Assembly (NCBI GenBank): GCA_030068145.1
Contig: JAPJBO010000148.1
Location: 272,409-326,474, forward strand
Source: Diplonema papillatum
Taxonomy: Eukaryota
Length of the DNA: 54,066 bases
Reading direction: 5' to 3'
Part shown: positions 101-47,189 of the stretch, piece by piece
How positions within the stretch are numbered: position 1 is the first letter of the stretch
Layout: the number at the start of each line of letters is the position of its first letter
The notes under the pieces: generated by a model
Databases searched by the model: none
The model's input: the letters and a program-made list of their open reading frames with translations, nothing else
What the model was told of the DNA's origin: nothing
Translations under genes and position numbers: made by a program

Positions 101-199
101 CTGTGTTTTGCCAACTAGTATACCTGTCATCACTAAAACCAACCACTATTCATCTTGAAACCACCAGGAATACACTTGAGAAAAAGCAACAAAACAAAC

Positions 200-2345: not shown

Positions 2346-2399
2346 AACCTTAAAAAGAGAGGGGTGGAGATTAGGGGGGCTGGCTATGCCGCAAGTCCT

Positions 2400-2801
2400 C
2401 GACACTCCACCTGAAAAAAAAAAACGCGCCACGTAGTCTACCACCCTCTTGAGGCTCTGGTGGTGAGGAAATGTCTACCATGCAGGGTCAAAACCTTGTG
2501 TCTTGTCATGCTACACAATCAATTACCTATACTTAACGCTGAACCATGGTTTTTGGTGGTTCAGTGTTAAGTATAGGTAATTACCTATACTTAACATTGA
2601 ACCACCCAAAATCGCGGTTCAATGTTAAGTATAGGTATGGGTTCAGCGTTAAGTATAGGTAATTACCTATACTTAACATTGAACCGCCCAAAATCACGGT
2701 TCAATGTTAAGTATAGGTAATTACCTATACTTAACATTGAACCACGATTTTGGGCGGTTCAATGTTAAGTATAGGTATGCTACGCATACTTTACACATGC
2801 C
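2400..2801 (-). repeat. 402-bp hairpin-rich terminal block of a DIRS-like element (copy 1)
   Basis: By eye, identical to 8160..8561. It contains a lone MITE-type TIR (2479-2505) and four consecutive ~57-bp hairpins with stem TTACCTATACTTAACATTGAACC (2523-2580, 2581-2637, 2663-2720, 2721-2777). Their loops are mutually complementary (cccaaaatcgc / gcgattttggg). Confidence 0.8.
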
Positions 2802-3550
2802 ATGGCGGTGTCTACATGTGTTAGTTGCCGAAACACGCCCATGCCCTGGAAAAGAGTCGCTATCTCCGAGGTCAGATCGCCCGTTATGACCGTCCAACGT
2901 GAGGGGGAAAAGGGATTTGCACGTTTGCCCTTTGGGGTCGTGTCCCAATCTATCACAACTTCCTCTTTCCGCACCAGTATGAATTGATGGTGCTTGAGAG
3001 CTGCGACCTCCCCCCACCTGCTTGCTGTCTTCCAAGCCACGAAAGCTGCTAGTCGTAGGGGTGGTTGCTGTTCTCGCGCCCACTCTAATAGAAGTGTTTT
3101 GCTTATCGGTAACGCTTGGTGGCTGGGAATATTTCCTCCAGTGGCTCGGAGAGCCCGAGCTAGATTCAAGATCGGGCGGTTGTCCAGCTCCAAGTACCCC
3201 AACATTGCTGAGATACCTTTGGCATACGACAACTGCGCTTGGGGACTGACACGGGTTGCCATGACGGACAATGCCGCTGTGTCCGCGTTGAGAGGCAGAC
3301 CCTGGGCCGATGTCCACCTCAGCAATCTGTTCCATAGACTCTGTCTTTGGGCCGTTGTGGAACGTGCCCACATTACTGATACAAGGTTTTGGAGCATATT
3401 CCCCGCTTCGTTTGCTGTCACCATTCCTTCTTTCGTACGTACTGTCTTCTTTCCAATTCCTTGAGCTAGATTTTGAAGTACTGCTTTGGCAAAAGTGTTT
3501 ATTGCACCTTTTTGAAGCCGTGTTTCTATTGGAAATGCGACGGAGCGCAT
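2780..3550 (-). pseudogene. DIRS-like tyrosine recombinase, N-terminal and core part, 3'-truncated where it runs into the hairpin block
   Basis: Protein contains ...LRLAAFVAWKTASRWGEVAALKHHQFILVRKEEVVIDWDTTPKGKRANPFSPSRW..., homologous to the YR ORFs at 7286..7819 and 11746..12180. It lacks the HxxR...Y catalytic end because the ORF terminates inside the repeat block at 2780-2801. Confidence 0.6.
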
Positions 3551-3670
3551 TTCTCGCGTTTGTTGACTTCGGAAGTCCAGCGACTTTTTGACAAAGCAGG
3601 TCTTCTGTAGGCCTAGCTGCGGGATGTAAATCGATGTGACTGGCTGAGGGGAAGGCAGAAAGACGGCCAG

Positions 3671-4681
3671 TCAATGCTGTCTCTCTGCCCTGACGTTTCC
3701 CTGCCCTTTAAATCCTTTGGCAGAAGCAGTGTACTGTCGCTTCCCTTTCCCCTTCTTGCCACCGAGTGCAATAGCAGCTTTTGCGACTTCGTCTGTGGAA
3801 GACTGCTCCAACTTCAACTTGTCCAACAGTGCACCTCGGGGCACTCGGTCTCGCACATGGTAGTGATGCACCCGCAAATTGCGGAGCAGCACATTGCCCA
3901 AGTCTAACAGGGGAGTCGACTCCCATCCCGCTGTCATGGCGCAACCAATCACCCACAGACGAAGCTGGTCAAAAGCTGCTTCCAAATCTTTCCCGCCTTG
4001 CAATCCAGTCAAGCCGCTCACATACTGTGCTTGCAATGCAAAAATCAACCCATCGGGGCTGCTCGATTCAAAAATTTCCTTCCACTCATGCACACTCTTC
4101 ACCGCCGCTGGGTGAGACCATTTCTGTTCAGTGGCTCTCATCTTCGTCTGGGACTCTTGGTCTACATCAAACTCTTTCACGTTTTCTGGTTTATGTTGGA
4201 ACTGCAATTGCTGTTCCAACCCCATCAGTCGTGCTTCCATCGTACTCCTCAAAAGATTCATCTCACGCTGAGCTGCCTCAGTTTGATGAACAGAAGCCTC
4301 AATTAACCGGTTGTAAACCCAATCTGGATCCGGGAGCAAGAATTCTCGCTCTGCACCATCGAATGGCGAAATGCCGTGCAGATAATTGAAGGCTTCGCTC
4401 AATCGCACACGAAAAGGTGTTTCTCCCTCCGCAACTTCACTGACTTTCCTCAACACTCCTGCATGCATGAGCCACCCGCTCGTGTCATTTTTACGTCTGC
4501 AGGAGTACACAACTAACTTTCCAAGAAGGGACTCTGCCTGATCCAGGAGCATACGCTCCGACATCTCGACTGGCGCTGGGAACCCCTGTCCTGCTGTTGC
4601 AGAGGGGGATGTCGCCCTTGCACGTGCAGTGCGCACTTCACTCAGTGTAAACGGGGCAAGGTTGGGTTCGGGGCTCGACAT
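3671..4681 (-). CDS. Gag-like coiled-coil ORF (336 aa) upstream of the YR gene in the same element
   Basis: Clean 336-aa ORF on the same strand immediately 5' of the YR ORF. It has a charged, helical, coiled-coil-like composition and a C-terminal basic GGKKGKGKRQ tail. No specific family recognised. Confidence 0.4.
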   Translation of the reverse strand: MSSPEPNLAPFTLSEVRTARARATSPSATAGQGFPAPVEMSERMLLDQAESLLGKLVVYSCRRKNDTSGWLMHAGVLRKVSEVAEGETPFRVRLSEAFNYLHGISPFDGAEREFLLPDPDWVYNRLIEASVHQTEAAQREMNLLRSTMEARLMGLEQQLQFQHKPENVKEFDVDQESQTKMRATEQKWSHPAAVKSVHEWKEIFESSSPDGLIFALQAQYVSGLTGLQGGKDLEAAFDQLRLWVIGCAMTAGWESTPLLDLGNVLLRNLRVHHYHVRDRVPRGALLDKLKLEQSSTDEVAKAAIALGGKKGKGKRQYTASAKGFKGQGNVRAERQH

Positions 4682-5651
4682 GATGCACTAAAAGAAGAGG
4701 AAAGGAAATAGAGGTTCAGAGTCAGCAAGGATCAAACAGTCTCTTCGCCTTCGGAAGCAGCAACGAACAGCTAGTTCGAGAGTGTCGCGGCAGACGTCTA
4801 GAAAACGAAGACGAGGCACGTTACCGTGAGGATCAACAAGTCGTCCTTTAAGCCGCCCCGACGTCCCGTTTCAAGAGCCTCGGCCAATATCTGCCTTCTC
4901 CTGCTTCGCTCTTCCGGCTGCAAGATGCAGGTTGCCTCTAACAACGATGGGGATCCCGTTACAAGAACTGCGCCCAGGTGCCGATTGCTCTTCGCGGTCA
5001 AAAGCGATACGGTGGCCACAATCTTTGGAGGGTGGGCGGAAAAGAACGGGGATCGAAGTGTACGGGAGGGGTAAGGTAACCTGTGGGAGAGTGCCTTGCG
5101 ATACAGAATTCCCTCAGTTAAACTACGATGGATCCCGCGTCGTGTGGACAGCGCCAGTGCATCCGCCACGTACGCGTTCGCAGTCCGGACAAGACGGTTC
5201 CGTTCGCCGGGTGAGAGAGGGGGCTCCGAGAGGAGGGGACGTCCGCATCGCCCCGAGACCGGAGGAGGGAAGCGGTCCACGGCGTCTACTGCTTGGTCTT
5301 GCTCCTGGTTGCGTTCGTCCGCTGAGGGGCCTGGGGAGCGTCGGGGGGAAGAGCTTCGCCCGAGTGTCGGGTGCGGGGCCTCGGGCTGCGCTTCCTGGGC
5401 GGCTTCGAGGCGGGCTGCTCCTCGGCTTTCTGTAGAGCCTGGAAGACGCTCCGTAGAAACGGAGGAAACCCGGCCTCGTGCTGATGCCGGTGCTGGAGGC
5501 TGCCTGCAAGAGACCACCCGGCTTTCAGATCCCGCAAACTCGACATAAGTTCCGGGGGCAAGGGTGGGTGGCAATTTGTTTTACGTTTTAACTAGCTAAG
5601 GTTGACCTCCTGTTGGAGTGGTTCACATTGGTTCCGAGCACTGACGGCAAT

Positions 5652-7151
5652 TCAATGCGCCAATTCCCTCAGTAAACTGCAGGAATGGTCGCGGTATCTT
5701 GGCACCCGCGATGGGAGATCTGCAGGGTTCCCTTCGCTCCGCACCCAGCGGACAGAGAGTGCGCAACCAAGGGTTCGCACCCTGGCAAGACCAGAAACCA
5801 CCGCGTTGTTCAGGTCTGCGTCTCGCATGCTGAACCCTTTCCGCGCTACTCCCTGCACGGTGGTATTGTCCACCACAACATCGATCCGTCCACCGGCAAA
5901 GGCGTCCGGGATCGACATTGCCGAACGTTCGAAGGCCATGGCCTCTAGAACATTAATGTGCAGCCTCGATTCCTCGGCTGACCAGGGAGCCCCCAAGATG
6001 GTTATTTCCGCCGTACAAGAGTCCACGAGAACACCACCCCATCCCTTCTTGCTCGCATCAACGAACACTGTCAACGACGGTACAGGGAGCTTCGTCGGTA
6101 TTGCCCGTGGCCTCATGACCGCGTCTATCCAACCTTGCAAAGATGAGCGTATGCATGGAGACAGGGAAACTTGTTCCGTCGGCATCCTCGTTCCTCGGTT
6201 CAACGAGTTCGTTACTCTGCGCATGAATTTCAGCGCAAACCAGAACGAGCCGGGGAAAATGCCCGCAATTGCAGATGCGTGGAGCAGCCTGCCCCCCAAG
6301 GCTTCGATATCACCGGCAGAAAGCGACGAAGCCTGGAGCTCGTACCGCGTCGTCATCAGCTTTCTGCAAAGCTTGCTGCTCAGCGAGACCTGCGAGACAC
6401 TGTGTCGCCAGTCGACCCCGATGAATTCATAACGGGGTGCAGCCGTCCGGGAATCAGCGTCTTTCCATGTCAGCGAGCAGTCCACCGCCGTCTGGTCCAA
6501 CCGCCGCGTCGCTGCAAGAACGCACTGCCTTGAGCCAGCGTAGCGAATGTTGTCGACCCAAACATGGACAACAACTTCACCCTCAACGAGCTCCGGCAAC
6601 ACAAAGTCGGGATGCCCGGCTGACACCGCTGCCAGCGTGTGCATGAGCTCGGGCGCACATGCATGGCCCATCGGGAGACGGTTCAACTCCCACCAGCTGC
6701 CGTCGTCCGTTGTGAAACGGAACAAGTGTCGAACGGCTTTCGGGATCTCTATTGCGTAGAATCCCGTGCGGAAGTCACGAGTAGTCCCGCACTCTTCATG
6801 TACTGCGCCCAAGTAGTGGGACACGTGAGCCAACGGAACGGACGCAACATAACCGGCGGCTTCAGCCGCACGGTTTCCGTCGAGGGTCCAAAGAATGAAC
6901 CGTTGCCGAAGAGAACCGTCTTTCTCCTCAAGAACCGTGAACGGCACCGAGGCCCAGGGGCCCGGGCCTGCTGCCCTCGCGGCTATCTCGTACTCCTCGA
7001 GCTGCTTCGCGTGACCCAAAACCAGCCTCGACGGGGATCCAAGCGACGGCAGAATGCTGCTCACGTCCGGGTAAAACGTCTTCCGCCACGTGTCGTCGAA
7101 GCGCGAGCGAACGCTTTCGGTCATGCGGGCACGCAGTTTGTTGACGTCCAT
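5652..7151 (-). CDS. Reverse transcriptase - RNase H polyprotein of DIRS-like element copy A
   Basis: ATG at 7151 (..VKPMDVNKL..). RT motifs include LNRLPMGHACAPELMHTL and HVWVDNIRYAGS. The RNase H part has ITILGAPWSAEESRLHINVLEAMAF ... VDNTTVQGVARKG ... WVRSEGNPADLPSR. The ORF-track extension 7152..7832 is a non-coding read-through overlapping the YR gene in another frame. Confidence 0.7.
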   Translation of the reverse strand: MDVNKLRARMTESVRSRFDDTWRKTFYPDVSSILPSLGSPSRLVLGHAKQLEEYEIAARAAGPGPWASVPFTVLEEKDGSLRQRFILWTLDGNRAAEAAGYVASVPLAHVSHYLGAVHEECGTTRDFRTGFYAIEIPKAVRHLFRFTTDDGSWWELNRLPMGHACAPELMHTLAAVSAGHPDFVLPELVEGEVVVHVWVDNIRYAGSRQCVLAATRRLDQTAVDCSLTWKDADSRTAAPRYEFIGVDWRHSVSQVSLSSKLCRKLMTTRYELQASSLSAGDIEALGGRLLHASAIAGIFPGSFWFALKFMRRVTNSLNRGTRMPTEQVSLSPCIRSSLQGWIDAVMRPRAIPTKLPVPSLTVFVDASKKGWGGVLVDSCTAEITILGAPWSAEESRLHINVLEAMAFERSAMSIPDAFAGGRIDVVVDNTTVQGVARKGFSMRDADLNNAVVSGLARVRTLGCALSVRWVRSEGNPADLPSRVPRYRDHSCSLLRELAH

Positions 7152-7285
7152 CGGCTTGACTGCGGCCACATGCAAAGGGGACTGGCGCTCTGCCGGCGTC
7201 CGAGGCAGCCGAGTCGACCCACCGCGACGCGTCACCGAGTGTGCCCGCAGCGTCCGAAACGCCTGATCCGACCGCAGATGGCGAC

Positions 7286-7819
7286 TCAGAGATGCTTCGT
7301 CGCCTTCGCGGTTCCGAGGACCCGGGCGAGGGCGAGCAGATTGCCGCCGTAACGAATCGTTGTTTCCGAGATCGCTCCTTCCGTCCCACCCGGTTCTTCG
7401 TGCTTGGCGAGCCGGTGTACGCTGCACAGCGGGATCGAAACGCCACTCGCAATCAGGTCGAACAGACGCGTCACTGCACCCCTTTTGATGGAGTGCGCCG
7501 AGTAGCGTCGCATCTCGGGGGATCGCGTCCACATCGAATCCAGGCCCGTTGTCGTCAGAGAACACAGTTCGTCGAAGGGGGCACTCGCCTGGAACATCTC
7601 GGCCAGTTCGGGCGTCAGAGGGCCCACTATCACGGCAAACCTCGACGGTTTGAACGGGTTCCGCCGTCGGCCTTTCGGGGTTTGCTCCCAGTCGATCACG
7701 ATCTCCTCCGGCGCGACACGCAGAAACTGCTTCGAGGACAGGGCGGCAGCCTCGGCCCACCTCGACGCCGATTTCCATGCCAGCAGAGTGCACATTTTCA
7801 CCGCCGGCGCCTGCGATAA
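7286..7819 (-). pseudogene. Tyrosine recombinase catalytic domain (copy A), N-terminal half separated by a MITE insertion
   Basis: LLAWKSASRWAEAAAL...YSAHSIKRGAVTRL...TIRYGG carries the HxxR and catalytic Tyr. Homologous N-terminal residues (DRATLVQWAL) continue on the far side of the MITE at 8032-8157. Confidence 0.65.
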
Positions 7820-8031
7820 CATGCAGGGTCAAAACCTTGTGTCTTTTTAAAACGCTCCCGCGGGGCCGATGGAGCCCAAAAAAAAATTTTGGAAAAAAAA
7901 AATTATGCTCAACTTCCTCAAAAATTACTGCAGAGTTTGTTCCAAACTTTTAAAATTCAAAAACCCCACTTTTTTTCCGGAAATTTTTTTTTTGCCATTT
8001 TCAAAAAGACACAAGGTTTTGACCCTGCATG
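7820..8031. mobile_element. MITE copy M1 (212 bp, 29-bp TIR CATGCAGGGTCAAAACCTTGTGTCTTTTT, TSD ATAA)
   Basis: Perfect TIRs at both ends. The 4-bp direct duplication ATAA sits at 7816-7819 and 8032-8035. M1 lies inside the YR gene of copy A. Confidence 0.85.
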
Positions 8032-8159
8032 ATAACGCCCACTGCACAAGTGTCGCTCTGTCCACAGGTACTGCCTGAGCCCGCGGCACCGCCGCCCCCG
8101 AGTTGCGCAGTGCCGAAGCCATCATCCGCAATGGCTGGTTCTCTAATCCCATCGCCGAT

Positions 8160-8561
8160 CGACACTCCACCTGAAAAAAAAAAACGCGCCACGTAGTCTA
8201 CCACCCTCTTGAGGCTCTGGTGGTGAGGAAATGTCTACCATGCAGGGTCAAAACCTTGTGTCTTGTCATGCTACACAATCAATTACCTATACTTAACGCT
8301 GAACCATGGTTTTTGGTGGTTCAGTGTTAAGTATAGGTAATTACCTATACTTAACATTGAACCACCCAAAATCGCGGTTCAATGTTAAGTATAGGTATGG
8401 GTTCAGCGTTAAGTATAGGTAATTACCTATACTTAACATTGAACCGCCCAAAATCACGGTTCAATGTTAAGTATAGGTAATTACCTATACTTAACATTGA
8501 ACCACGATTTTGGGCGGTTCAATGTTAAGTATAGGTATGCTACGCATACTTTACACATGCC
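8160..8561 (-). repeat. 402-bp hairpin-rich terminal block (copy 2), 3' end of DIRS-like copy C
   Basis: Same sequence as 2400..2801. Its lone left TIR at 8239-8265 is matched by a right TIR at 8712-8740, giving a 500-bp TIR-bounded composite. Confidence 0.8.
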
Positions 8562-8963
8562 TGTCTCGGCTCTTGTAGGTGACCCCCCTGACCCCCCACG
8601 CAAAAATCCCTTTGGCGAAAAAAAATATTTTCGCCAACCCCTTTTCAGATTTTTTTTTTTTTTTGGCGAAAAAATTTTTTTTCACCAAAGGGAAAAACCC
8701 CTGCCATTTTCAAAAAGACACAAGGTTTTGACCCTGCATGATAAACGTGCAGTTGTGCTGCAACTGGGATTTTTAGTAGGGAATTCCAAAAAGAAGAACG
8801 GGACGTGTTGTGTGTAAACGGGGAGGGGGAACCTGTGAAGGTATGCTTGCAATATCGGAATTCCCTCAGTTAAACTACGAGAATTCCATGCATGCATGTG
8901 AACGGAAAGGGGACGCGCAGTAAAGAAGCGAAGGGGAAATCGTCTCGGCCGGGCAGGATGAAC

Positions 8964-9176
8964 CTAACCTTCCGAACGAGAACGAACCCCATCGCGTGTA
9001 AAAAACTTCCGCAACGCTTGTTCAACTACCCTCTTTCCATTCCTGGAAGAAAGCAGCTGGGGCGACATGCGGGAAGGTAAATCCGCAATATTCGACACAG
9101 AGCGCACCCAAGCAATTGTGAAGGTGGCCCCCACTTCACGCAGTCTTGACAAAGCTGCTACAATAGCCTCATTTAA
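8964..9176 (-). pseudogene. RNase H C-terminal fragment (copy C)
   Basis: ...FTIAWVRSVSNIADLPSR... matches the RNase H ends of the other copies. The upstream part is separated by MITE M2. Confidence 0.55.
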
Positions 9177-9389
9177 CATGCAGGGTCAAAACCTTGTGTC
9201 TTTTTGAAAATGGCAAAAAAAAAAAATTCCAGAAAAAAAATGGGGTTTTTGAATTTTAAAAGTTTGGAACAAACTCTGCAGTAATTTTTGAGGAAGTTGA
9301 GCAAAATCTTTTTTTTCCAACATTTTTTTTTGGGGTCCATCGGCTCCGCGGGAGCGTTTTAAAAAGACACAAGGTTCTGACCCTGCATG
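9177..9389. mobile_element. MITE copy M2 (TSD TTAA), inserted in the RNase H of copy C
   Basis: TIRs at both ends. TTAA at 9173-9176 and 9390-9393. Internal region is in inverted orientation relative to M1. Confidence 0.85.
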
Positions 9390-9399
9390 TTAAGGGTTT

Positions 9400-9615
9400 T
9401 GAGGCCATGCACATACCCTTCCTTGCTGCGGATGCTACAGTCGTGTTATCGACTTTAAAATGAACGTTATTACTCAGAAAAGCGGGAGGCAGAGCAAATA
9501 TTGCGTTGCGGAACGCCAACGCTTCTAGAATGTTGATGTGCAACAAGGATTCAGCATCAGTCCATGAATTGCCTGCGACGATTACTTCCTTAGTAGTGTT
9601 GTCGATTGCAACCAT
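9400..9615 (-). pseudogene. RNase H N-terminal fragment (copy C)
   Basis: ...SWTDAESLLHINILEALAFRNA...FKVDNTTVASAARKG... parallels the RNase H of the 5652..7151 ORF. Confidence 0.55.
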
Positions 9616-9746
9616 GCCCCATCCTCGCAGTGAAGCATCAACAAAAACATCAAATGGGGTGCATGGAAGGATATTTTGTACTTTGAGCGGTTTTCCAACA
9701 GCAGCACGCCAAACTTTTAACTCCTTTTGAACGGAAGGAGGGATAC

Positions 9747-9958
9747 CATGCAGGGTCAGAACCTTGTGTCTTTTTAAAACGCTCCCGCGGAGCCGATGGA
9801 CCCCAAAAAAAAAAGTTGGAAAAAATTTTTTTTGCTCAACTTCCTCAAAAATTACTGCAGAGTTTGTTCCAAACTTCTAAAATTCAAAAAACCCATTTTT
9901 TTTCCAGAATTTTTTTTTTTGCCATTTTCAAAAAGACACAAGGTTTTGACCCTGCATG
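9747..9958. mobile_element. MITE copy M3 (TSD ATAC)
   Basis: TIRs plus ATAC at 9743-9746 and 9959-9962. Lies between the RT and RNase H fragments of copy C. Confidence 0.85.
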
Positions 9959-10647
9959 ATACTTACAAGAGAGGAAGCGCTTCTTTTCCCGGAGTTGAGG
10001 CTGTTAATGACTCGCCGCAAGAACTTAATCGCAAACCAAAACCGACCAAGTAGTACCCCTGATACGGCGCTTGCGTGCATGAGTCGGCCTCCAAAAGACT
10101 CCAACTCTCCGGCAGTTACTTTATCAAACTGCACGCTCTCTAACTTTGACAAGAGTCTTTTTGAAGGCGAAACTTCACCTGTTGTGTGGTCAAAACTTAC
10201 CCCGATAAAATCATACACGGAGGCTGCATCCTCGCTGTCCTCCGGTTTCCAAGTCACACCGGCTCCCTGCGCCGTCTTGTCCAGACGGGCTGTTTCTGCC
10301 TTTACCGACCTTTCGCTCCCCGTTAGACGAATATTGTCTATCCAGGTATGGACAGTCACGTCTTGGGCCCTGTATTCCTCCTTGACATAGTCCGGGTGCC
10401 CTCCAATGGTTGATGTCAGGGTGTGCATAAGTTCTGGAGCACAACTGTGTCCCATAGGCAACCGGGTTAGTTCGAACCATCTGCCTTTATCGTCGGTGTA
10501 TCGAAAATGCTTCCGCGAACCCTCAGGTATTTCTACCTGATAGAATCCACACCGTAAGTCCCTCAGGGATGCACACTCGTTCGATACTACATGTATGTAC
10601 TTAGAAACATGTTCTAACGGCACCTGAGCTTTGTATGAAGCCCTCAA
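9959..10647 (-). pseudogene. Reverse transcriptase fragment (copy C)
   Basis: ...FELTRLPMGHSCAPELMHTL...VTVHTWIDNIRLTGS... is homologous to the copy-A RT. Confidence 0.6.
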
Positions 10648-10686
10648 GTTTTCATTTGCTTCACGTGTCCATAATATAAACCTCTG

Positions 10687-10899
10687 TCATGCAGGGTCAG
10701 AACCTTGTGTCTTTTTAAAACGCTCCCGCGGGGCCGATGGACCCCAAAAAAAAAATTTGGCAAAAAAACTTTTTGCTCAACTTCCGCAACAATTACCGCA
10801 GAGTTTGTTCCAAATTTTTAAAATTCAAAAAACCCATTTTTTTTCTGGAAATGAAAATTTGGCCATTTCCAAAAAGACACAAGGTTCTGACCCTGCATG
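10687..10899. mobile_element. MITE copy M4 (TSD CTGT)
   Basis: TIRs plus CTGT at 10683-10686 and 10900-10903. It splits the RT of copy C. Confidence 0.85.
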
Positions 10900-11255
10900 C
10901 TGTCTCAAGCCCGAGGGCTTCTCTTCCAACACCGTGAAAGGTACAGACATCAAGGTTCCTGGTCCCGTTGCAGGAGCAGCAATATCACACTTCACCAATT
11001 GTTCTGCATGAGCAGCACTGAATGAAGAACGGATACCTCTCATTGGTAACGATTGAGAAGACGGGGGATTAAAAGTTGCATTCCAAACGAGATCAAAACG
11101 TTCCCGTACGCATTTCCTCATTCTTAGCTTCAGCTTCTCAACCTGTAAAGGTTGCACCTTTGTAGCGTGCAGTGGAGCGTTTCTTTCTTCATCTGTTGCC
11201 GGGATTCTGGAACAATGGGCACGCCGGGTCAGAGTATGCTTGTTGTGTGAACTCA
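10900..11255 (-). pseudogene. RT N-terminal fragment (copy C)
   Basis: ...KLKLRMRKCVRERFDLVWNATFNPP...TGPGTLMSVPFTVLEEKPSGLRQ is homologous to residues ~230-320 of the 5652..7832 ORF (NKLRARMTESVRSRFDDTWRKTFYPD...PGPWASVPFTVLEEKDGSLRQ). Confidence 0.55.
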
Positions 11256-11258
11256 TAA

Positions 11259-11470
11259 CATGCAGGGTCAAAACCTTGTGTCTTTTTGGAAATGGCCAAA
11301 ATTTTATTTCCAGAAAAAAAATGGGTTTTTTGAAATTTAAAAGTTTGGAACAAACTCTACAGTAATTTTTGAGGAAGTTGAGCAAATTTTTTTTTTTCCA
11401 AAAATTTTTTTAGGGCTCCATCGGCCCCGCGGGAGCGTTTTAAAAAGACACAAGGTTTTGACCCTGCATG
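11259..11470. mobile_element. MITE copy M5 (TSD ATAA)
   Basis: TIRs plus ATAA at 11255-11258 and 11471-11474. Confidence 0.85.
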
Positions 11471-11534
11471 ATAAATATCGCGTCACTTCCCCAGTCTTCA
11501 GGGCACGCGCTACGCAATTGGATCGCCTCCATAT

Positions 11535-11745
11535 CATGCAGGGTCAAAACCTTGTGTCTTTTTGGAAATGGCCAAAAAAAAAATTCTGGAAAAAAAATGG
11601 GTTTTTTGAATTTTAAAAGTTTGAAACAAACTCTGCAGCAATTTTTGAGGAAGTTGAGCAAATTTTTTTTTTCCAAAAATTTTTTTAGGGCTCCATCGGC
11701 CCCGCGGGAGCGTTTTAAAAAGACACAAGGTTTTGACCCTGCATG
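11535..11745. mobile_element. MITE copy M6 (TSD ATAT)
   Basis: TIRs plus ATAT at 11531-11534 and 11746-11749. Sits at the 3' end of the copy-C YR fragment, just after the catalytic Tyr. Confidence 0.85.
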
Positions 11746-12180
11746 ATATCTTATGGTCATTTCGGGAAGACCCGATGCCCCTTGATGTTTCGCTAAACGC
11801 GCTATAAGCCAATCTTGTAGAGGGACACCTTGAGACAACAGTTGGAAAAGATGTGAAAGAGCTCCTCGCTTGATACTGTGACCGGAGAACGGCCGCATTC
11901 GAGGATCCTTGTTCCAAAGCGCGTTTAGCTCGGCTGTGCTTACTTGGGTCAGACTTTGAAAACTGCCTAAGCTTCGGACAAGTGTCGCAATTACTCTGGT
12001 CAGGTCGCCTTTTATCACTGTCCAGCGTGACGGAGAAAAAGGGTTGGCCCATTTTCCTTTCGGGGTTGTGCCCCAGTCCACAATCACCTCCTCTTCCTGG
12101 ACCAGTAGAAACTGGGACGATCCCAGAGCTGCGACTTCTCCCCACCTGCTCGCCGACTTCCATGCTAATAGAGCCGCCAT
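11746..12180 (-). pseudogene. Tyrosine recombinase fragment (copy C): MAALLAWKSASRWGEVAAL...GHSIKRGALSHL...MTIRYH
   Basis: Has the HxxR and catalytic Tyr. Bounded by MITEs M7 (upstream) and M6 (downstream). Confidence 0.6.
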
Positions 12181-12184
12181 GGTA

Positions 12185-12397
12185 TCATGCAGGGTCAAAA
12201 CCTTGTGTCTTTTTGGAAATGGCCAAAATTTTATTTCCGGAAAAAAAATGGGTTTTTTGAATTTTAAAAGTTTGGAACAAACTCTGCGGTAATTTTTGAG
12301 GAAGTTGAGCAAAAAAAATTTTTTCCAAAAAAAATTTTTGGGCTCCATCGGCCCCGCAGGAGCGTTTTAAAAAGACACAAGGTTTTGACCCTGCATG
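12185..12397. mobile_element. MITE copy M7 (TSD GTAT)
   Basis: TIRs plus GTAT at 12181-12184 and 12398-12401. It is 5 bp upstream of the YR Met codon of copy C. Confidence 0.85.
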
Positions 12398-12446
12398 GTA
12401 TGCTATGCGCAACTATGCGCAACTATGCGGAACGACCCCAAAGTAT

Positions 12447-12598
12447 CATGCAGGGTCAGAACCTTGTGTCTTTTTGGTATGGCCAAAATTTTATTTCCAG
12501 AAAAAAAAGTTGGAAAAAAAAAAATTCGCTCAAGTTCAGCAAAAATTACTGCAGAGTTTGTTCCAAACTTTTAAAATTCAAAAAACCCAATTTTTTTC
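12447..12598. mobile_element. MITE copy M8, partial or chimeric (left TIR only, internal region switches orientation)
   Basis: Left TIR at 12447, flanking GTAT. There is no right TIR; the copy abuts the palindromic tandem repeat at 12598. Confidence 0.6.
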
Positions 12599-12800
12599 TA
12601 AAAATGTAAAATACAGAGAGCTCTCTGTATTTTACATTTTTAGCGAAAAATTCGCTAAAAATGTAAAATACAGAGAGATCTCTCTGTATTTTAGCGAATT
12701 TTTCGCTAAAAATGTAAAATACAGAGAGCTCTCTGTATTTTACATTTTTAGCGTTTTTTTTGCTAAAAATGTAAAATACAGAGAGCCTCTCTGTATGTTA
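12598..12800. repeat. Tandem array of ~50-bp perfect palindromes (AAAATGTAAAATACAGAGAGCTCTCTGTATTTTACATTTT + TAGCGAAAAATTCG spacer) x4
   Basis: Direct reading. Each unit is self-complementary around GAGCTC / GAGATCTC. Confidence 0.8.
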
Positions 12801-12873
12801 CACATGCCTCGTTCCGCATAGTTGCGCATAGTTGTTTGGGCTGTTCCGCATAGTTGTGCATAGTTGCGCATAG

Positions 12874-13085
12874 CATGCAGGGTCAAAACCTTGTGTCTTT
12901 TTAAAACGCTCCCGCGGGCCCGATGGAGCCCTAAAAAATTTTTTGGAAAAAAAAAAATTTGCTCAACTTCCTCAAAAATTACTGCAGAGTTTGTTCCAAA
13001 CTTTTAAAATTCAAAAAACCCAATTTTTTTCCGGATTTTTTTTTTTTGCCATTTTCAAAAAGACACAAGGTTTTGACCCTGCATG
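12874..13085. mobile_element. MITE copy M9 (TSD ATAG)
   Basis: TIRs plus ATAG at 12870-12873 and 13086-13089. Inserted in the CGCATAGTTG minisatellite. Confidence 0.85.
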
Positions 13086-13345
13086 ATAGTTGTTTGGGCT
13101 GTTCCGCATACTTTGGGGTCGTTCCGCATAGTTGCGCATAGTTGTTTGGGCTGTTCCGCATACTTTGGGGTCGTTCCGCATAGTTGCGCATAGTTGCGCA
13201 TAGTTGTTTGGGCTGTTCCGCATACTTGGGGTCGTTCCACATAGTTGTGCATAGTTGCGCATAGTTGTTTGGGCTTTTCCGCATAGTTGCGCATAGTTGC
13301 GCATAGTTCCGCATAGTTCCGCATACTTTGGGGTCGTTCCGCATA
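13086..13345. repeat. Minisatellite built from CGCATAGTTG / TTCCGCATA words (also 12800-12871, and in reverse orientation 12400-12440 and 13805-13985)
   Basis: Direct reading of repeated gttccgcatagttgcgcatagttgtttgggct units. Confidence 0.75.
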
Positions 13346-13584
13346 TCTGTTTCCAGAATGGCATGGAACTTGCCATCCAGGCGCAACGGGTGGTCGCTAG
13401 CCCGAGGTGGCAGGTCTCTACCCCGGCGAATCTTTACTCCGCCGGGGTAGAGATCGGTGAAGATCGGCGGAGTCAAGGTCGGCGGAGTCAAGGTCGACGG
13501 AGTAAAGGTCCGGTGGAGTAAAGGTCGACGGAGTAAAGATCCACCCAAGGCAAATTGATTTTTTTCTCTCTCCTCCTTCTGTAC

Positions 13585-13802
13585 CATGCAGGGTCAAAAC
13601 CTTGTGTCTTTTTAAAACGCTCCCGCGGGGCCGATGGACCCCAAAAAAAAAAATGGGTTTTTTGAATTTTAAAAGTTTGGAACAAACTCTGCGGTAATTT
13701 TTGAGGAAGTTGAGCAAATTTTTTTTTTGCCAAAATTTTTTTTTGGGGTCCATCGGCCCCGTGGGAGCGTTTTAAAAAGACACAAGGTTCTGACCCTGCA
13801 TG
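13585..13802. mobile_element. MITE copy M10 (variant with extended palindrome; flanks GTAC / CTAT do not match)
   Basis: TIRs are present. The subterminal aaaacgctcccgcggggccgatgg is found at both ends in inverted orientation. Confidence 0.75.
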
Positions 13803-14400
13803 CTATGCGGAACTATGCGCAAACTGTGCGGAAAAGCCCTAGTTGTTTGGGCTGTTCCGCATACTTTGGGGTCGTTCCGCATAGTTGTTTGGGCTTTTCC
13901 GCATAGTTGCGCATAGTTGCGCATAGTTGTTTGGGCTGTTCCGCATACTTTGGGGTCGTTCCGCATAGTTGCGCATAGTTGCGCATGTCCGGCCATAGAA
14001 TCCAGACCAGACACTACGTTCTGCCACGTCTTCTCCAGCGACCTCGGCATGCACCCAGGTCCTTCCCCATTCAGAGTTTGCAGCCCTCGGATATATACGC
14101 GTCGAGGCCGTTCATCGCCTTGACTCTGCTCGAGGCATATGTGTCTGCGCCCGTCCCGGTGTCCATCGCAGATGCAATTCGCACCCTTTTGGGCACCGTC
14201 GTCTCACCTCTTCCTCGATAGGCGGCAACGGGCCCGTCGAGCAGCCCCTGTTCCTCTGCCAGCTCGATCAGAAACTGCTCGCACGCCTTCGTCGCCGACA
14301 GCCAGAGTGCTTCCACTTTCCCTGGTGCCGCATCGCCGAAGCGATTCACCAACAACTCTTCCGCCCTTGCCGCTGTCCGCCCCTCGTCCACCTTGCTTAT

Positions 14401-14611
14401 CATGCAGGGTCAAAACCTTGTGTCTTTTTAAAACGCTCCCGCGGGGCCGATGGAGCCCTAAAATTTTTTTTGGAAAAAAAAAAATTTGCTCAACTTCCTC
14501 AAAAATTACTGCAGAGTTTGTTCCAAACTTTTAAAATTCAAAAAACCCAATTTTTTCTGGATTTTTTTTTTTTGCCATTTTCAAAAAGACACAAGGTTTT
14601 GACCCTGCATG
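14401..14611. mobile_element. MITE copy M11 (TSD TTAT)
   Basis: TIRs plus TTAT at 14397-14400 and 14612-14615. Confidence 0.85.
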
Positions 14612-14643
14612 TTATTTGCCGCAGTGACCTCGGCATTCGATAC

Positions 14644-14855
14644 CATGCAGGGTCAGAACCTTGTGTCTTTTTAAAACGCTCCCGCGGGGCCGATGGACTT
14701 AAAAAAAAATTTTTGGAAAAAAAAAAAATTGCTCAACTTCCTCAAAAATTACTGCAGAGTTTGTTCCAAACTTTTAAAGTTCAAAAACCCCAATTTTTTT
14801 CCGGAATTTTTTTTTTTGCCATTTTCAAAAAGACACAAGGTTTTGACCCTGCATG
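14644..14855. mobile_element. MITE copy M12 (TSD ATAC)
   Basis: TIRs plus ATAC at 14640-14643 and 14856-14859. Confidence 0.85.
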
Positions 14856-15746
14856 ATACCTCTCACACGTGTCTGCGAACGCGGCGATGTCCAACTCCAC
14901 CGTTACCATCTTGTGACTGGGCACCTGCTGCTCCTCCCCACAACAACGGTGGTCTCGCTCGCTACGAGTGCCTGCATCGCGACATCGTTCAACGTCGAGT
15001 GTAATCGACGCGTAATCGAGCTAAAGTCACTTTCAGGGGGGCTAGGTGAATTGGCTCAATATTTATAAATTAAGAACTACATAAATTAGGAGCCAGACAG
15101 TGATTCAGGAGTGCTAGATATTACTAGTCGTCGAAGCCAGCCCCACCCCGAATTCTTGTGTTGATTCGAGGTGGTCGTGCTCGTCTAGCCATGCGTCTTG
15201 CTCCTATTCCCTCAGTAAACTGCAATATTATTCAACGGAACAAGGAGAAAAAACTAGGGGGGGAAAAGAGTAGTTGTATTTAGCGGCGGTAGCTGTATTC
15301 CAAGAAAGTTGTATTCATTCGTACATCCCCCCCTGTACCCTGTGATGGAGCGCATGCAGGAGGAGCAGTTGTTGAAGGACTTCACCGACACCGTCCTCAA
15401 CGTTATGCAGGACAGGAAGAGTGGGCGCGGAAGGCTTCTTCGTGCCATCTGGAACTGTGTGCCTCCACAACGGCCACCAGTTGTGCTTGTGCAAAGCCAA
15501 AGCAAGAGAAACCTTACCAATCAGCGCAAAGCAGCACACCGTGCACACGGCAGCAAAGTCAGCGCAGAAGTGCCCGAGAACAACCGGGCTCCAAATATTA
15601 GGTTTTTAGGCTCCCGCAAAGAGCATCTGCGCTGACATTGGTTGACGAGCCAGACGCTGAACATTGACAAGGTTTCTCTTACAGGACATCCAGATTGGTT
15701 TCACGGCCCACCGGCTAGCATAGGCACCTCCAGCTTGGAATAAATT

Positions 15747-16955: not shown

Positions 16956-18875
16956 ATGCCAGCGGTGAAGGAGATGCCCCAGCTCGATGGCGAAGTGGAG
17001 GCCGCAATCAGTTGTTCCTCGGCAACACCGGTTCATGAGGCGCAGCGTATGCGCTCACAGTTCTTGGCTCGCTGGAGGAAGAGGTCTGACGAGCTGTCGC
17101 CCCACGAAGGAGATCCTTGTCACGTCGAACTACTCGGCGAGATGCTTCGCGACCTGCGCATCTCAGGCGCTGACGATCTCCTGTTCCACCTGAAGACGGG
17201 TTGCCCCATGTCAGGCGTGGTCGGGTACGGAGGGCTCTACACTCCGGGACCCCCCGGGGCACCTGAGATGACAGAGGAGGAGTTGGTCCGGCGTCAGGGC
17301 GACGTTCTAGCGAGGTCGGTGCGGGCCATCCGTTCCGACTCCAAGGATAACAGGCTGGCGATATGGCGCTCCGTGCAGAAGGAGGTTGCTGCCGGTTATA
17401 TGGTAGCGGTTCGTCCCCCAGCTAACGCCGTCTATCTCAGGAGGTTCCTGATTCGCCAAGTGAAGTTTGACGACGAGGGCTCCCGCATCAAGGAGCGGGC
17501 CTGCGACGATGGTCGCATGGCACTGGTGAACAAGTCCGTCCACATGTCGACGCCGGTGAAGTTGGACACGACGGATGTGTACGTGGAGGTGGCCAGGCGG
17601 GTGGCTTTCGGACGACCCCGCCGCCACGTTCCGGTCTGTGGGTCTGGACCACAAGGACGCGTACCGCCAGTTGCGCGCCAGGAACGACAGGCTGTGCAGG
17701 TGCGTCGTCGTGGAGAACCCTGAGGATGGTGAGGTGGCGTACTTCCGGATGGAGCGGCTATCCTTCGGCGAGACAGCGGCTGTTGTGCACTACAACGCTT
17801 TCGCAAGGATCCTGGCGAGGTTGGTCCGCCGCGGGCTCCGGCTTCCGTTGTGCCAGTATTACGACGACTTCGCCGCCCCGACCCTGGCCTCGGACGATCG
17901 GGCGCTGACTGACGTCCTGGAACTTCTCCAGGACATTCTTCGGACGTCATTCAACGAGGAGAAGACGTCGGCAAACAACTACTTTCGCCATCTCGGCTTG
18001 ATGTTTACCATCAAAACGGAAGCAGTGAGGTCGGAATCTCAGGGCCCAGGAGGCAGGGTCTCATTCACATGCTGGAGGGAATCCTGAGCCGCGATTCCTT
18101 GTCGCCGGGGGAGGCTGCGTCGTTGGCAGGTAAGCTCGCCTTCGCGACTTCGGCGCTCTTCGGCAGGATTGGCCGCGTGCCACTCCAGCCGATCTACAGG
18201 CGCTCCAATGCGTCATCGACTTTTGCAGGGTTCAAGTTAGGTGTCGATCTTCGAGCATCCGTGAGATGGTGGGCAAGCACGCTGGCCGCAGGAGAGTTGT
18301 GTTTCAGAAGATCTGTGCCCCTTCGTCTAGTGCAGCCCGGCGTAGGCACCAGATATGTCCTCTTCACCGATGTCTGCCTCTTCGGTCTTGGCGCGGTCTT
18401 AGCTACGGTCGTAGATGGCTTTCCTACCGCGGTCGAATACTTCGCGCATCCTGTCCCCCCGGCGGGCTCAGAGCTGCAGATCCACCACCTCGAGTTTGCT
18501 GCGGTCTCGGTTGCGTTCTCCCTGTGGTTCAATGACAGATTCGACTTCACCGTCTCAGTCTGGGTTGACAACAGCATCGTGCTGGGCAGCCTGATACAAG
18601 GGCGGACAAAGGCTAAAGAGCTTCTTCTTCCGGTTCATGCGTTCTGGGAGCGTCTAGCTAGGTCCAGAGGCGATGCGTGGTTCGAGAGGGTACCGGGGGA
18701 GGACAACCTCTCTGACCTTCCCAGCCGGCTCAACCATGCCTGGGCGGATATTCCATTTAAGGGTCTACGACCCAAGAGAAGGGACGTAGAACAACGGATC
18801 GTCGACGAAGCGATCGCGGATGTGCTCGGGGGCAGTCTGTCCGGCCTGGTATCTTCCGCGTCGCCTGAGCCGTGA
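16956..18875 (+). pseudogene. RT - RNase H (DIRS/LTR-like clade) split over three frames by two frameshifts
   Basis: RT domain 1 reads VYLRRFLIRQVKFDDEGSRIKERACDDGRMALVNKSV. Domain 2 reads FRSVGLDHKDAYRQL, followed by MERLSFGETAAVVHYNAFARIL and the YYDDF box. RNase H reads ELQIHHLEFAAVSVAFSLW...VWVDNSIVLGSLIQG...FERVPGEDNLSDLPSR. The frame changes near 17575-17720 and 18069-18087. Confidence 0.6.
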
Positions 18876-19595: not shown

Positions 19596-20091
19596 ATGGG
19601 TGCCATCTCGTCGATGCAGCGGGTTCTCCTGCTGCTGTTATGTTCAGTGCTTGGGGGAGCCACCTTGGAAGACGATCCGACGCCTGCTCTCTGGTTTCCG
19701 AAGGAATTCGTACAAATGGAAATGCTGATGGCTAACGACATTCAGATCCCGGAGGAGCTGCAGCGGGAAGCCAACCCGTTGGGTGCTGTTTCCTTCATGC
19801 ACAAGTCACGGTTGTGGGTGGATGGAAGGGTAAACTTCGTTATCGATACCCTGACAACCAACCCTGACAACGCGGCTCCTGATTTCTTGCCTGAAGATGA
19901 TCCGCGCATCCTAGGTGCCGTCGCACACTGGGAAGATGTCACATGCATTCGTTTCAACAGGTGCCTCACTGTTGCATCGTGTGCTTGGCCATTCATCCGT
20001 TTCCGGTCAGACCTCGACGCGTGTAACTCTCCCCTGGGCACCGGCGGATGGGGCATTAACAACATCAATCTCGCCAGCGCTTGCACCTTGG
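19596..20091 (+). CDS. Astacin-family zinc metalloprotease (M12A), exon 1: signal peptide plus N-terminal half of the catalytic domain
   Basis: ATG at 19596. The hydrophobic MQRVLLLLLCSVLGGATL signal is followed by LWVDGRVNFVID, AVAHWEDVTCIRF and FIRF...ACNSPLGTGGWGINNINLASACTLG. The exon ends in a GT donor at 20092 (acc ttg g|gtgtgtgc), phase 1. Confidence 0.75.
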
Positions 20092-20437
20092 GTGTGTGCT
20101 CCCCCCCTCTGGTAACACCACTACTCTTGCTTTTCCAACCACTCATCAACTTTACTTCTCAATTTTTCCGTGCTTGTGTAAGCCGCCCCATTTGCTGAAT
20201 TTGTTCTGGTTTCCTAGGAAACAGACAGATATCTGTTGCCCTCTTAGCTCGCCGCTCTGTTAAATCATGTTGAAGAATCGAGTAGCAAGCTTGTGGCGGA
20301 GTCGACCATCCATTCCACGGGCCACGACGCGCCACCAACACATACGTAGAATTTTACCCTTTGCACTTAAGTCGTGATGTATTGTTGCCATCATCCATTG
20401 CGTCGTATGTTCAAGAAAACGGCTTAATCAATCACAG
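20092..20437 (+). other. Phase-1 GT-AG intron (346 bp) of the astacin gene
   Basis: Donor GTGTGT at 20092 and acceptor ...AATCACAG at 20430-20437. Splicing restores the canonical astacin spacing GC..G(G)SVIHEIGH. Confidence 0.65.
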
Positions 20438-42845: not shown

Positions 42846-43313
42846 GCCGCAGGCTTTGCCGCAGGCTTTGCCGCAGGCTTTGCCGCAGGCTTTGCCGCAG
42901 GCTTTGCCGCAGGCTTTGCCGCAGGCTTTGCCGCAGGCTTTGCCGCAGGCTTTGCCGCAGGCTTTGCCGCAGGCTTTGCCGCAGGCTTTGCCGCAGGCTT
43001 TGCCGCAGGCTTTGCCGCAGGCTTTGCCGCAGGCTTTGCCGCAGGCTTTGCCGCAGGCTTTGCCGCAGGCTTTGCCGCAGGCTTTGCCGCAGGCTTTGCC
43101 GCAGGCTTTGCCGCAGGCTTTGCCGCAGGCTTTGCCGCAGGCTTTGCCGCAGGCTTTGCCGCAGGCTTTGCCGCAGGCTTTGCCGCAGGCTTTGCCGCAG
43201 GCTTTGCCGCAGGCTTTGCCGCAGGCTTTGCCGCAGGCTTTGCCGCAGGCTTTGCCGCAGGCTTTGCCGCAGGCTTTGCCGCAGGCTTTGCCGCAGGCTT
43301 TGCCGCAGGCTTT
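42846..43313. repeat. Perfect 12-bp microsatellite-like array (GCCGCAGGCTTT) x 39
   Basis: Direct reading; 468 bp with no variant units. Flanked by ~90-bp repeats (ggaaacaggggtggcc(t/c)ggctcaccgactagtt(t/c)gtaatgtgaaaaggaatcggaa(t/c)cgcttcgctctcgag(a/g)ccactgtgcaa) at 42518-42605, 42760-42845 and 43540-43620. Confidence 0.9.
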
Positions 43314-43647
43314 GTCGCAAGGTCTGCCACTTCTTCGGTGTCGAGCTTCGGATAAAACAGCCGTCTGTGTTTCATCAGCGCAGAGGGCTGCAGGCGTGGA
43401 AACGCGGTTGCACACGAGGCAAATGAGGTGGTCCTTTTGCCGTGGGCGGAAACGAACTGGAGCAAAGTGCAAGTGCACTCGCTTTGTTGATTCCAGCAGG
43501 GTGTCGTAGTGCTGGTGGTCAACGTCTTCCTCGCCGGCTTCCTCGTTCGGTCTGGCTTGGGTACAAACGAGTTCGTATTGTGAAAAGGAATCGGAATTGC
43601 TTCGCTCTCGAGACCACTGTGCAAGGTAGCAGCAGCAGGCAGTTCGA

Positions 43648-46200: not shown

Positions 46201-47189
46201 AGATGAGAAAAATAAAAAGGGGTACGGTAGAGAAATCTTGCCTAAAGGAATCAACTGCCTTCGGGTAGGCTAGTCTGACACTAGTTGTTGTCGCCGGCAG
46301 TGCTCCCACTAAGGAAAAAACCGGAGGAATTCCTCAAAAAAAAAAAAAGGTGCTGAAAAATGCCCCGGAGGAATTCCTCCGGAGGAATTCCTCCGGGGGG
46401 ACCTGAGGAATTCCTCCGGCCTGGTACCTGGCGTAGGAGTGAACCCGTGTGGGTGTAGCTCGCGACTAGTACTGGTCATGAAGTCTTTGCCGAATCTTTC
46501 TGTGTGACTTTGGCACCTGCGGCATGGACTGCTTCAAAAAACCGCGCCTGGGGCACAAGATGTGGCTGATGGTGCGAGCATGTTGTCACATTTGGCGTCA
46601 AAACTGACTGAGTCCACCACAAAACTGTGAAGAGGGAAGGACAGTGTCTATCCTCATGCTTATCAGGAGTCTTTGTGCTCTCAAATACTCTTTGGGCAGA
46701 CCGCTGTGTGTGACACCATGCCAGTTTTCGGGATCTTCGTACTGCCCCTGACAAGGCCTCCATTTTTTTTCCGCGCCTGCGGCGCAAGTATTCTTGACTA
46801 TGTAGGACTATCTCATCTCGTTTTGTCCAAGTGTCCACTGGCAAAGGATTCATATCAAGTTTATAAGGAGTGCAGTGATATCCCGGCATGAGATCTCGCT
46901 TGTGGGGATTTCCAATGCTCAGCACCTTCGGCTGACACTGCCTACCAGCCTACCATGCAGGGTCACTACCCAGCTTGTGCACTGCACGAACAGCATGAAA
47001 TTGCTGGTGTTTGCTTCCTCTGGCATGGGGGGTTGGCGGTGGGATCCAATCTCAGAAGCTGGAGTCAAAGCTACAGTGAAAAAAGCGGGTGTGGTGCGGA
47101 TTCACGCGCATTTTGGTTGTGGTGGAGCAACCCATCTCTCGCCTGGGAGCACTGACAGACACTGCTAAAAAAGCGCGACACTGCGACAG

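Follow-up and report, generated by a model that had tools for sequence, protein, structure and literature searches.

A recently active miniature inverted-repeat transposable element family with 4-bp target duplications, clustered in a 54-kb stretch of Diplonema papillatum DNA

In a 54-kb stretch of Diplonema papillatum DNA (the window, to which all counts and positions refer unless stated otherwise), we identified a family of ~212-bp MITEs, or miniature inverted-repeat transposable elements, whose copies crowd between positions 7820 and 14855. Ten copies are intact and each is flanked by a perfect 4-bp target-site duplication (TSD); two further copies are rearranged and lack one. The insertions are independent and recent, their 4-bp duplication is precise, and they are regionally clustered. 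The family is genuine, recently active and of the ordinary MITE kind, and is apparently undescribed. We consider it highly probable that the copies are non-autonomous, cut-and-paste class II elements with terminal inverted repeats (TIRs), mobilised in trans, which made ten or more recent insertions here. A DDE enzyme would be responsible for the mobilisation, and the clustering would reflect a regional preference or tolerance, not the identity of the retroelements that house many of the copies.

Anatomy, target duplications and age of the copies

The window was searched with the 29-nt TIR query CATGCAGGGTCAAAACCTTGTGTCTTTTT, allowing ≤3 mismatches, and 100 shuffles of the window served as the control. 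The query matched 26 times in the window and not once in the 100 shuffles, which bears out the proposal, made in a sequence-only reading of this DNA, of a TIR-bounded family of ~212 bp. These matches pair into 12 inverted-end units, all between 7820 and 14855, and leave two orphan left ends without a partner (at 2479 and 12447). The 29-bp TIR (5′-CATGCAGGGTCARAACCTTGTGTCTTTTT) shows 0–1 mismatch in 24 termini, and the intact copies measure 211–213 bp. Twelve copies in 7 kb had been counted earlier; the ten intact and two rearranged copies were recovered, and a 502-bp hybrid unit had been missed. The copies, with alpha and beta denoting subtypes, YR a tyrosine recombinase, RT a reverse transcriptase and ORF an open reading frame, are:

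7820–8031, plus strand: MITE M1, 212 bp, alpha, TSD ATAA; inside the YR ORF of retroelement copy A
8239–8740, plus strand: hybrid unit, 502 bp, bounded by TIRs; flanks CTAC/ATAA, hence no TSD
9177–9389, minus strand: MITE, 213 bp, alpha, TSD TTAA; C-terminal coding part of the RT/RNase H of copy C
9747–9958, plus strand: MITE, 212 bp, alpha, TSD ATAC; RNase H region of copy C, within a single tblastn high-scoring segment pair after excision
10688–10899, plus strand: MITE, 212 bp, beta, TSD CTGT; RT of copy C
11259–11470, minus strand: MITE, 212 bp, beta, TSD ATAA; N-terminal part of the RT ORF of copy C
11535–11745, minus strand: MITE, 211 bp, beta, TSD ATAT; YR/RT overlap of copy C
12186–12397, minus strand: MITE, 212 bp, beta, TSD GTAT; junction of the 5′-truncated YR of copy C and the satellite
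12447–12805, no strand assigned: chimeric element (M8), no right TIR, no TSD
12874–13085, plus strand: MITE, 212 bp, alpha, TSD ATAG; inside the 10-bp-period satellite
13585–13802, no strand assigned: palindromic variant (M10), 218 bp; flanks GTAC/CTAT, hence no TSD
14401–14611, plus strand: MITE, 211 bp, alpha, TSD TTAT; unannotated DNA
14644–14855, plus strand: MITE, 212 bp, alpha, TSD ATAC; 32 bp from the copy at 14401–14611

Read in positional order, the ten TSDs reproduce the list of the sequence-only reading exactly, and its description of them as mostly NTAN holds for 9/10, with CTGT the sole exception. Staggered cleavage of the DDE type leaves just such a signature, perfect TSDs whose sequence varies. 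Both internal orientations are represented, as had been claimed (six plus and four minus among the intact copies). Pairwise identity ranges from 84 to 98%, the main differences being homopolymer lengths, and every copy is distinct; the copies are therefore not segmental duplicates. Variation within the TIRs amounts to one shared A/G polymorphism at position 13 (5/580 bases), with no private TIR mutations, and 3.4% of bases in the non-homopolymer columns of the interior deviate from the consensus. This difference in conservation fits selection for transposase binding, under which only copies with intact ends would propagate.

The MITE folds back strongly on itself (−55.4 kcal/mol, z = −8.8), and its interior is AT-rich and without coding capacity. 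Rfam and tRNA searches of the cluster gave no match, nor did the read-through translation of the MITE when compared with 5.8 billion proteins. No MITE copies or fragments were found outside the cluster in the remaining 47 kb of the window. The generic features of a MITE are thus all present: TIRs, a TSD of fixed length on independent copies, a length <800 bp, a non-coding interior and 12–13 copies in the window. The family is like MITEs in general in its shortness, AT-rich non-coding interior, near-perfect TIRs, fixed TSD, many diverged copies and foldback, and we see no essential difference from them.

The proof that these are insertions comes from the sequences that they interrupt. Three retroelement copies and a satellite occupy this part of the window:

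2802–4681, minus strand: retroelement copy B, a gag-like ORF plus a 3′-truncated YR; no MITE
5652–8158, minus strand: retroelement copy A, a 5′-truncated YR overlapping RT/RNase H
8741–12185, minus strand: retroelement copy C, a 5′-truncated YR plus RT/RNase H, VIPER/TATE-like; six MITEs
12398–13986, no strand assigned: satellite of 10-bp period (CGCATAGTTG) with longer 42/62-bp units, interrupted by MITEs and with some segments inverted

We confirmed that six MITEs lie inside copy C and split it into five pieces. Each MITE copy was then deleted in silico together with one copy of its TSD. After excision, tblastn alignments to a full-length paralogue ran across M1, M4 and M5 in one frame without a break. 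Copy C changed from five fragments into a 557-aa RT/RNase H ORF and an intact 153-aa YR ORF, and the YR of copy A became one continuous ORF of 231 aa. Since the host frames are restored exactly, the 4-bp duplication is real, and the element boundaries and the length of the TSD are fixed. The ten empty sites gave a TA-centred target consensus of S|WTAN: TSD position 2 is T in 10/10, position 3 is A in 9/10, and the base directly upstream is C or G in 8/10.

Apart from its six MITEs, copy C consists of ~2.1 kb of coding sequence with no stop codon and no frameshift. Together with the perfect TSDs and the TIRs free of private mutations, this puts neutral divergence since insertion at under ~1% by a rough estimate, and on these features the insertions are judged recent. 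Neighbouring copies differ from one another at 1–7 of 98 non-homopolymer columns. Because these differences exceed the post-insertion divergence, the copies descend from donors that had already diverged.

Regional clustering and its possible explanations

In the account that we favour, a transposase encoded elsewhere would bind the TIRs and excise the MITE, which would integrate at a 4-bp staggered cut in an S|WTAN target, repair of the cut producing the 4-bp duplication. At least ten separate recent insertions from diverged donors would have entered one short stretch containing a young VIPER/TATE-like retroelement and a satellite, and later recombination among neighbouring copies would have given the TSD-less chimeric and palindromic variants. 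Several points weigh against this account. Both the target consensus and the TSD length come from ten sites in a single window. The window yielded no autonomous element that combines these TIRs with a transposase, as the sequence-only reading had already stated. The five copies of the beta subtype are contiguous (p ~0.015), a hint of local relatedness that a Mantel test does not confirm. The MULE, Tc5 and Helitron superfamilies are not known to make 4-bp TSDs. They are the only types, the Helitron uncertain, among the DNA-transposon-like ORFs reported for the D. papillatum genome (PMC10161547 supplement).

Local hopping, in which one or a few founders transposed repeatedly to nearby sites, would account for the contiguity of the beta copies and for the extreme density of the cluster, where 40% of 9177–14855 is MITE. 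We regard it as a rather slim possibility: in the Mantel test, sequence distance does not rise with physical distance (r = −0.26, p = 0.92), and the differences between neighbours are larger than the divergence accumulated since insertion. The best fit is that copies from several donors came repeatedly to a domain that is favoured or tolerates them.

The sequence-only reading had proposed that the MITE preferentially inserts in the DIRS-like elements, that is, that YR retroelements are targeted through their sequence or structure, for example at a site just upstream of conserved YR codons. At the scale of the whole window there is an apparent excess, with 7/10 insertions in retroelements, whose sequence accounts for 12% of the TA sites (P = 4e-5). 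We expressed the hit rate region by region as TSD-bearing insertions per TA dinucleotide:

copy C: 6 insertions, 99 TA sites
satellite and other DNA: 3 insertions, 54 TA sites
copy A: 1 insertion, 31 TA sites
copy B plus spacer: 0 insertions, 74 TA sites
remaining 39 kb: 0 insertions, 1293 TA sites

Copy C and the satellite were hit at equal rates per TA site, while copy B, which is most closely related to copy C, is significantly empty (P = 0.011 at the rate of copy C); element-specific targeting is therefore unsupported. The RT/RNase H-like fragment at 17997–18875 is likewise free of MITEs. Within the block 2802–14900, retroelement sequence shows no enrichment over non-retroelement DNA (P(≥7 of 10) = 0.86), and 9/10 insertions fall in copy C and the adjoining satellite, which make up 9.2% of the TA sites (P = 4e-9). 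Density in this window follows position and not element identity, and a preference for DIRS-like sequence is not supported.

The same reading had pointed to insertions in copies A and C lying 5–25 bp upstream of the same YR codons. Proximity and different TSDs are confirmed; the distances are 33 nt upstream of the LLAWKSASRW codons for M1 in copy A and 14 nt for the MITE at 12186 in copy C. The two insertions have opposite orientations and are 19 nt apart in homologous coordinates. They are independent and not inherited, as had been argued, since TSD, orientation and position all differ and the hosts are 48% identical. The further step to a site preference does not follow, because such closeness near the YR codon is expected by chance ~10% of the time; the pair is weak evidence for a site or structure preference. 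Taken together, these data make targeting of YR elements unlikely.

A passive graveyard, an old neutral repeat island slowly collecting MITEs, would suit a repeat-rich region of truncated retroelements, satellite and rearranged MITEs, and the D. papillatum genome has long repetitive regions between its gene clusters (PMC10161547). We find this equally doubtful. The otherwise intact copy C, ten perfect TSDs and the lack of private TIR mutations indicate a recent burst, and other repeat-rich parts of the window, namely the tandem arrays at 25018–27656, 42846–43319 and 52651–53413, contain no MITE. The first of these arrays is ~2.6 kb long with strong purine/pyrimidine strand asymmetry (AT skew ~0.5), the second has a 12-bp register and >99% identity, and the third has a ~60-bp period.

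In a further reading, retroelement transcripts would lose the element plus one TSD in the manner of a nonconventional intron, the 29-bp pairing bringing the two ends together, and copy C would remain functional. Euglenozoan nonconventional introns are flanked by short direct repeats, have a secondary structure that joins their ends and have been proposed to originate from MITEs (PMC12621601). Removal of the element with one TSD does restore the ORFs exactly, and splicing would explain why copy C carries six insertions and no other lesion. If true, an active MITE family would have been caught becoming intron-like in a diplonemid. However, introns of D. papillatum and other Diplonemidae are >97% canonical GT-AG, the noncanonical introns of hemistasiids are 37–91 nt long with GC-rich ends, and a noncanonical reporter intron was left unspliced in P. 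papillatum (PMC12621601). The MITE lacks GT...AG boundaries, half of its copies lie in non-coding satellite or other DNA, and recency alone accounts for the intact ORFs. We therefore hold the intron reading to be very improbable.

Least credible of all is mobilisation by the tyrosine recombinase of the retroelements, to which the 403-bp repeat R403 (26/29 TIR bases, twice adjoining truncated YR genes) and the Trypanosoma cruzi short element SIRE, which shares its ends with the YR retroelement VIPER (PMC12278014), might point, but which is contradicted by ten perfect TSDs of variable sequence and by R403 boundaries that miss the TIR by 80 bp of shared upstream flank.

The hosts themselves are divergent. 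Copies A and C share 48–49% protein identity, lower than the ~60% stated earlier, and the YRs of B and C share 69%. The best match of copy A is the D. papillatum gene model P0001, at 100% identity in the BLASTP local alignment, although one residue and the C-terminal tail differ between the displayed sequences; the P0001 sequence is recorded on 8 contigs. In Pfam searches the host elements gave only a weak RT_RNaseH signal. Homology of the RT was seen via a distant match, P0058, which carries RVT_1, and the YR is recognisable by its motifs (HSIKRG, LAKH, IRY) and not by profile. A comparison of the YR sequence with PDB chains gave no meaningful match. In the fused model P0013 the order is gag-like, YR, RT and RNase H, and copies A–C fit an arrangement in which a gag-like ORF comes first and the YR and RT/RNase H ORFs after it overlap. 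By sequence, the ‘DIRS-like’ hosts are thus laid out like VIPER/TATE elements, in the order gag, YR, RT/RNase H. In kinetoplastids these elements belong to the DIRS order and make no TSDs, and they have the same arrangement of a gag-like ORF before overlapping YR and RT/RNase H ORFs (PMC12278014). The hosts differ from them in being very divergent; split direct repeats were not recognised in the three copies, which are all truncated and so have no defined termini. TATE-like ‘phage integrase family’ proteins are listed in the supplement of the D. papillatum genome paper (PMC10161547 supplement).

Other features of these sequences were noted. The satellite is rich in ATAG, ATAC and GTAT tetramers. 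The fragment at 17997–18875 (plus strand) is a fourth RT/RNase H-like sequence, with weak RT_RNaseH_2 similarity and 24% identity to P0026, directly upstream of Astacin-domain ORFs (19596–23064, plus strand). In copy A, the palindromic CATG at the MITE terminus gives an in-frame ATG to the downstream YR fragment (ORF 7822–7286), and in copy C a MITE reading frame runs directly into the YR (ORF 12348–11440). From their reading frames, MITE insertions could create spurious or chimeric gene models.

A candidate transposase and relation to known superfamilies

One ORF in the window could encode a transposase:

155–2152, plus strand: transposase-like ORF, 665 aa, with a DDE/RNase H-fold core and motifs resembling IS1595/Merlin blocks

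The sequence-only reading had called it a Merlin ORF without these TIRs nearby. Absence of the MITE TIR beside the ORF was confirmed on its right; on its left the sequence runs to the window edge, and the left end of an element may lie outside. A degenerate A-rich tract follows the ORF at 2230–2350. The Merlin label was not sustained: searches of Pfam and NCBIfam, including the IS1595/Merlin models such as DDE_Tnp_IS1595 (E ≤ 10), and a word-indexed protein search gave no match to the ORF, and the resemblance of its motif blocks to IS1595 was judged by eye only. Structure prediction from the single sequence was unusable (pLDDT 36). With a 15-sequence alignment, a usable core with a predicted DDE fold was obtained, but the superfamily cannot be told from this fold.

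An exhaustive HMMER search found 18 relatives of this ORF among 1.84 billion representatives. The best were two D. papillatum proteins (38–43% identity), together with proteins of another diplonemid assembly; paralogues include DIPPA_20292 and DIPPA_63742. By these matches, the family is very sparsely populated and apparently restricted to diplonemids. At four near-identical related loci in another diplonemid's assembly, a microsatellite forms the left edge, what looks like the right terminus belongs to a separate small repeat, and no TIR or TSD was readable. The MITE termini were absent from paralogue loci L001–L007 (Logan and ENA, ~131 kb, other diplonemids). The ORF at 155–2152 is a candidate transposase linked to the MITE by proximity alone. 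As a separate observation, the other diplonemid (ENA ERZ25333236) has a ~270-bp unit bounded by inverted GGAAAATCCGGTGCACAGGGGG ... CCCCCTGTGCACCGGAGTGGCC, beside the related transposase genes (L004 8274–8540 and 13856–14122, with equivalents in L005–L007) and elsewhere; that species may thus have a MITE-like family of its own, unrelated to the present one.

The 4-bp TSD had been said not to match Tc1/mariner, PIF/Harbinger or hAT. This stands, but the length is not unprecedented, as Sola2 and Ginger2 also make 4-bp TSDs. Those of Sola2 are variable and AT-rich (AWWT, ATAT, AAAT, ATTT), with TIRs of 12–21 bp (PMC3627910). The MITE resembles Sola2 in its variable AT-rich TSD, 9/10 being TA-centred, and differs in its longer TIR (29 bp), its near-invariant central TA and its free last base. 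Sola has no Pfam model (PMC5751038), and no Sola-type transposase is known from the D. papillatum genome or linked to this TIR. On the criteria compared, only Sola is compatible, and a Sola-like TSD is the best match in the literature consulted; we make no superfamily assignment.

Other superfamilies were rejected. Ginger2 has a 4-bp TSD at RTATAY, TGTNR termini and TIRs of 50–180 bp, and the TSD of Ginger1 is CCGG or CCGT (PMC2836005). Ginger2/TDD elements and the MITE are alike in a 4-bp TSD at AT-rich, TA-containing targets, but the CATGC terminus and 29-bp TIR of the MITE do not fit Ginger2, and none of the ten TSDs is CCGG or CCGT. Kolobok and piggyBac, which share the 4-bp length, are specific for TTAA, and Kolobok termini begin 5′-RR (PMC9587614); only 1/10 MITE TSDs is TTAA, and the MITE terminus is 5′-CA. 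Merlin elements are known in Euglenozoa (Euglena, Bodo, Perkinsela), with TSDs of 8–9 bp and TIRs that start 5′-GG (PMC8101967), at odds with the 4-bp TSD and 5′-CA of the MITE; the only likeness to Merlin/IS1595 is the Merlin-like-looking transposase ORF 5.7 kb from the MITEs. For Tc1/mariner, which duplicates TA, the objection is that all four bases are duplicated here, including the variable outer ones.

Rearranged copies, related arrays and wider occurrence

The two TSD-less copies had been described as chimeric (M8) and as a longer palindromic variant (M10), and both descriptions hold. The chimera lacks a right end and consists of a beta-type right-end segment, an A-run junction, an interior in plus orientation and then a hairpin-repeat array. 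The 218-bp palindrome has the left subterminal sequence at both ends and looks like a recombinant of two copies fused at homopolymer runs. On these structures, the TSD-less variants would be recombinants between neighbouring copies. That the two are reciprocal products of one inversion was considered and rejected: their junctions share A/T runs, but the flanking tetramers and orientations misfit a single simple inversion. At the left end of the hybrid unit at 8239–8740, a variant TIR (26/29) and the hairpin-repeat array after it are part of R403; the right 179 bp are a diverged MITE relative with a canonical TIR.

R403 occurs twice in the window:

2399–2801, plus strand: R403 copy 1, 403 bp, 100% identical to 8159–8561
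8159–8561, plus strand: R403 copy 2, adjoining the truncated YR of copy A, 5.76 kb from copy 1

Each copy contains the variant MITE left end (with a CTAC flank and 26/29 TIR bases; at 2479 in copy 1). Nested hairpins of a 22-nt motif, TACCTATACTTAACATTGAACC, follow over ~300 bp, and the repeat terminates in ...TTTACACATGCC. One copy adjoins the 3′-truncated YR of copy B and the other the 5′-truncated YR of copy A. R403 could represent the end of a longer MITE relative; it could also have arisen by recent conversion or duplication, or be an artefact of assembly. The chimera at 12447–12805 has the same layout, a MITE left end and then a hairpin array of a different motif (GCTAAAAATGTAAAATACAGAGAG and its complement), and terminates in ...TGTTACACATGCC. 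The ending TTACACATGCC, common to R403 and the chimera, suggests a second, unrecognised element type or junction. A 16-mer at 46950–46965, CTACCATGCAGGGTCA, combines the TIR's first 12 nt with the CTAC flank seen in R403; it has no inverted partner and no further similarity, and ~2.5e-5 chance matches are expected.

Searches of viral, metagenome and prokaryotic genome collections with exact TIR patterns, and with both 12-nt termini at MITE spacing, gave no match. The D. papillatum genome paper (PMC10161547) does not mention MITEs, and a full-text literature search for MITEs and diplonemids returned matches only on euglenid nonconventional introns. The most abundant dispersed repeat of D. papillatum, R=0, is 226 bp long with 6,030 copies, and is given without sequence (PMC10161547 supplement). 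The size match makes the MITE a candidate for R=0. If the two are the same, 1.2 copies would be expected per 54 kb compared with the at least 12 observed (P = 4e-9). The MITE family, perhaps R=0, possibly marks an undescribed transposase lineage with a 4-bp TSD and regional targeting in Euglenozoa.

Hardly any work has been done on class II elements in Euglenozoa. Trypanosomatids have none (PMC12278014), no compilation of euglenozoan transposable elements exists (PMC10161547 supplement), and repeats make up 46–52% of the D. papillatum assembly and have been left largely unclassified (PMC10161547). With its TIR and TSD defined, a recently active MITE family offers a handle for annotating part of this repeat fraction. 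It can also guide searches for the missing autonomous element and the transposase superfamily, and could serve as an insertional marker in a marine protist that is genetically tractable. The analysis also carries a caution, in that a striking apparent link to one type of element vanishes once the availability of the target motif and position are considered.

Finally, the window contains two rRNA fragments, which match the scattered rRNA gene pieces, present in thousands of copies, of the genome paper (PMC10161547):

28402–28541, minus strand: large-subunit rRNA fragment, model positions 2832–2984
34664–34910, plus strand: small-subunit rRNA fragment, model positions 1229–1478

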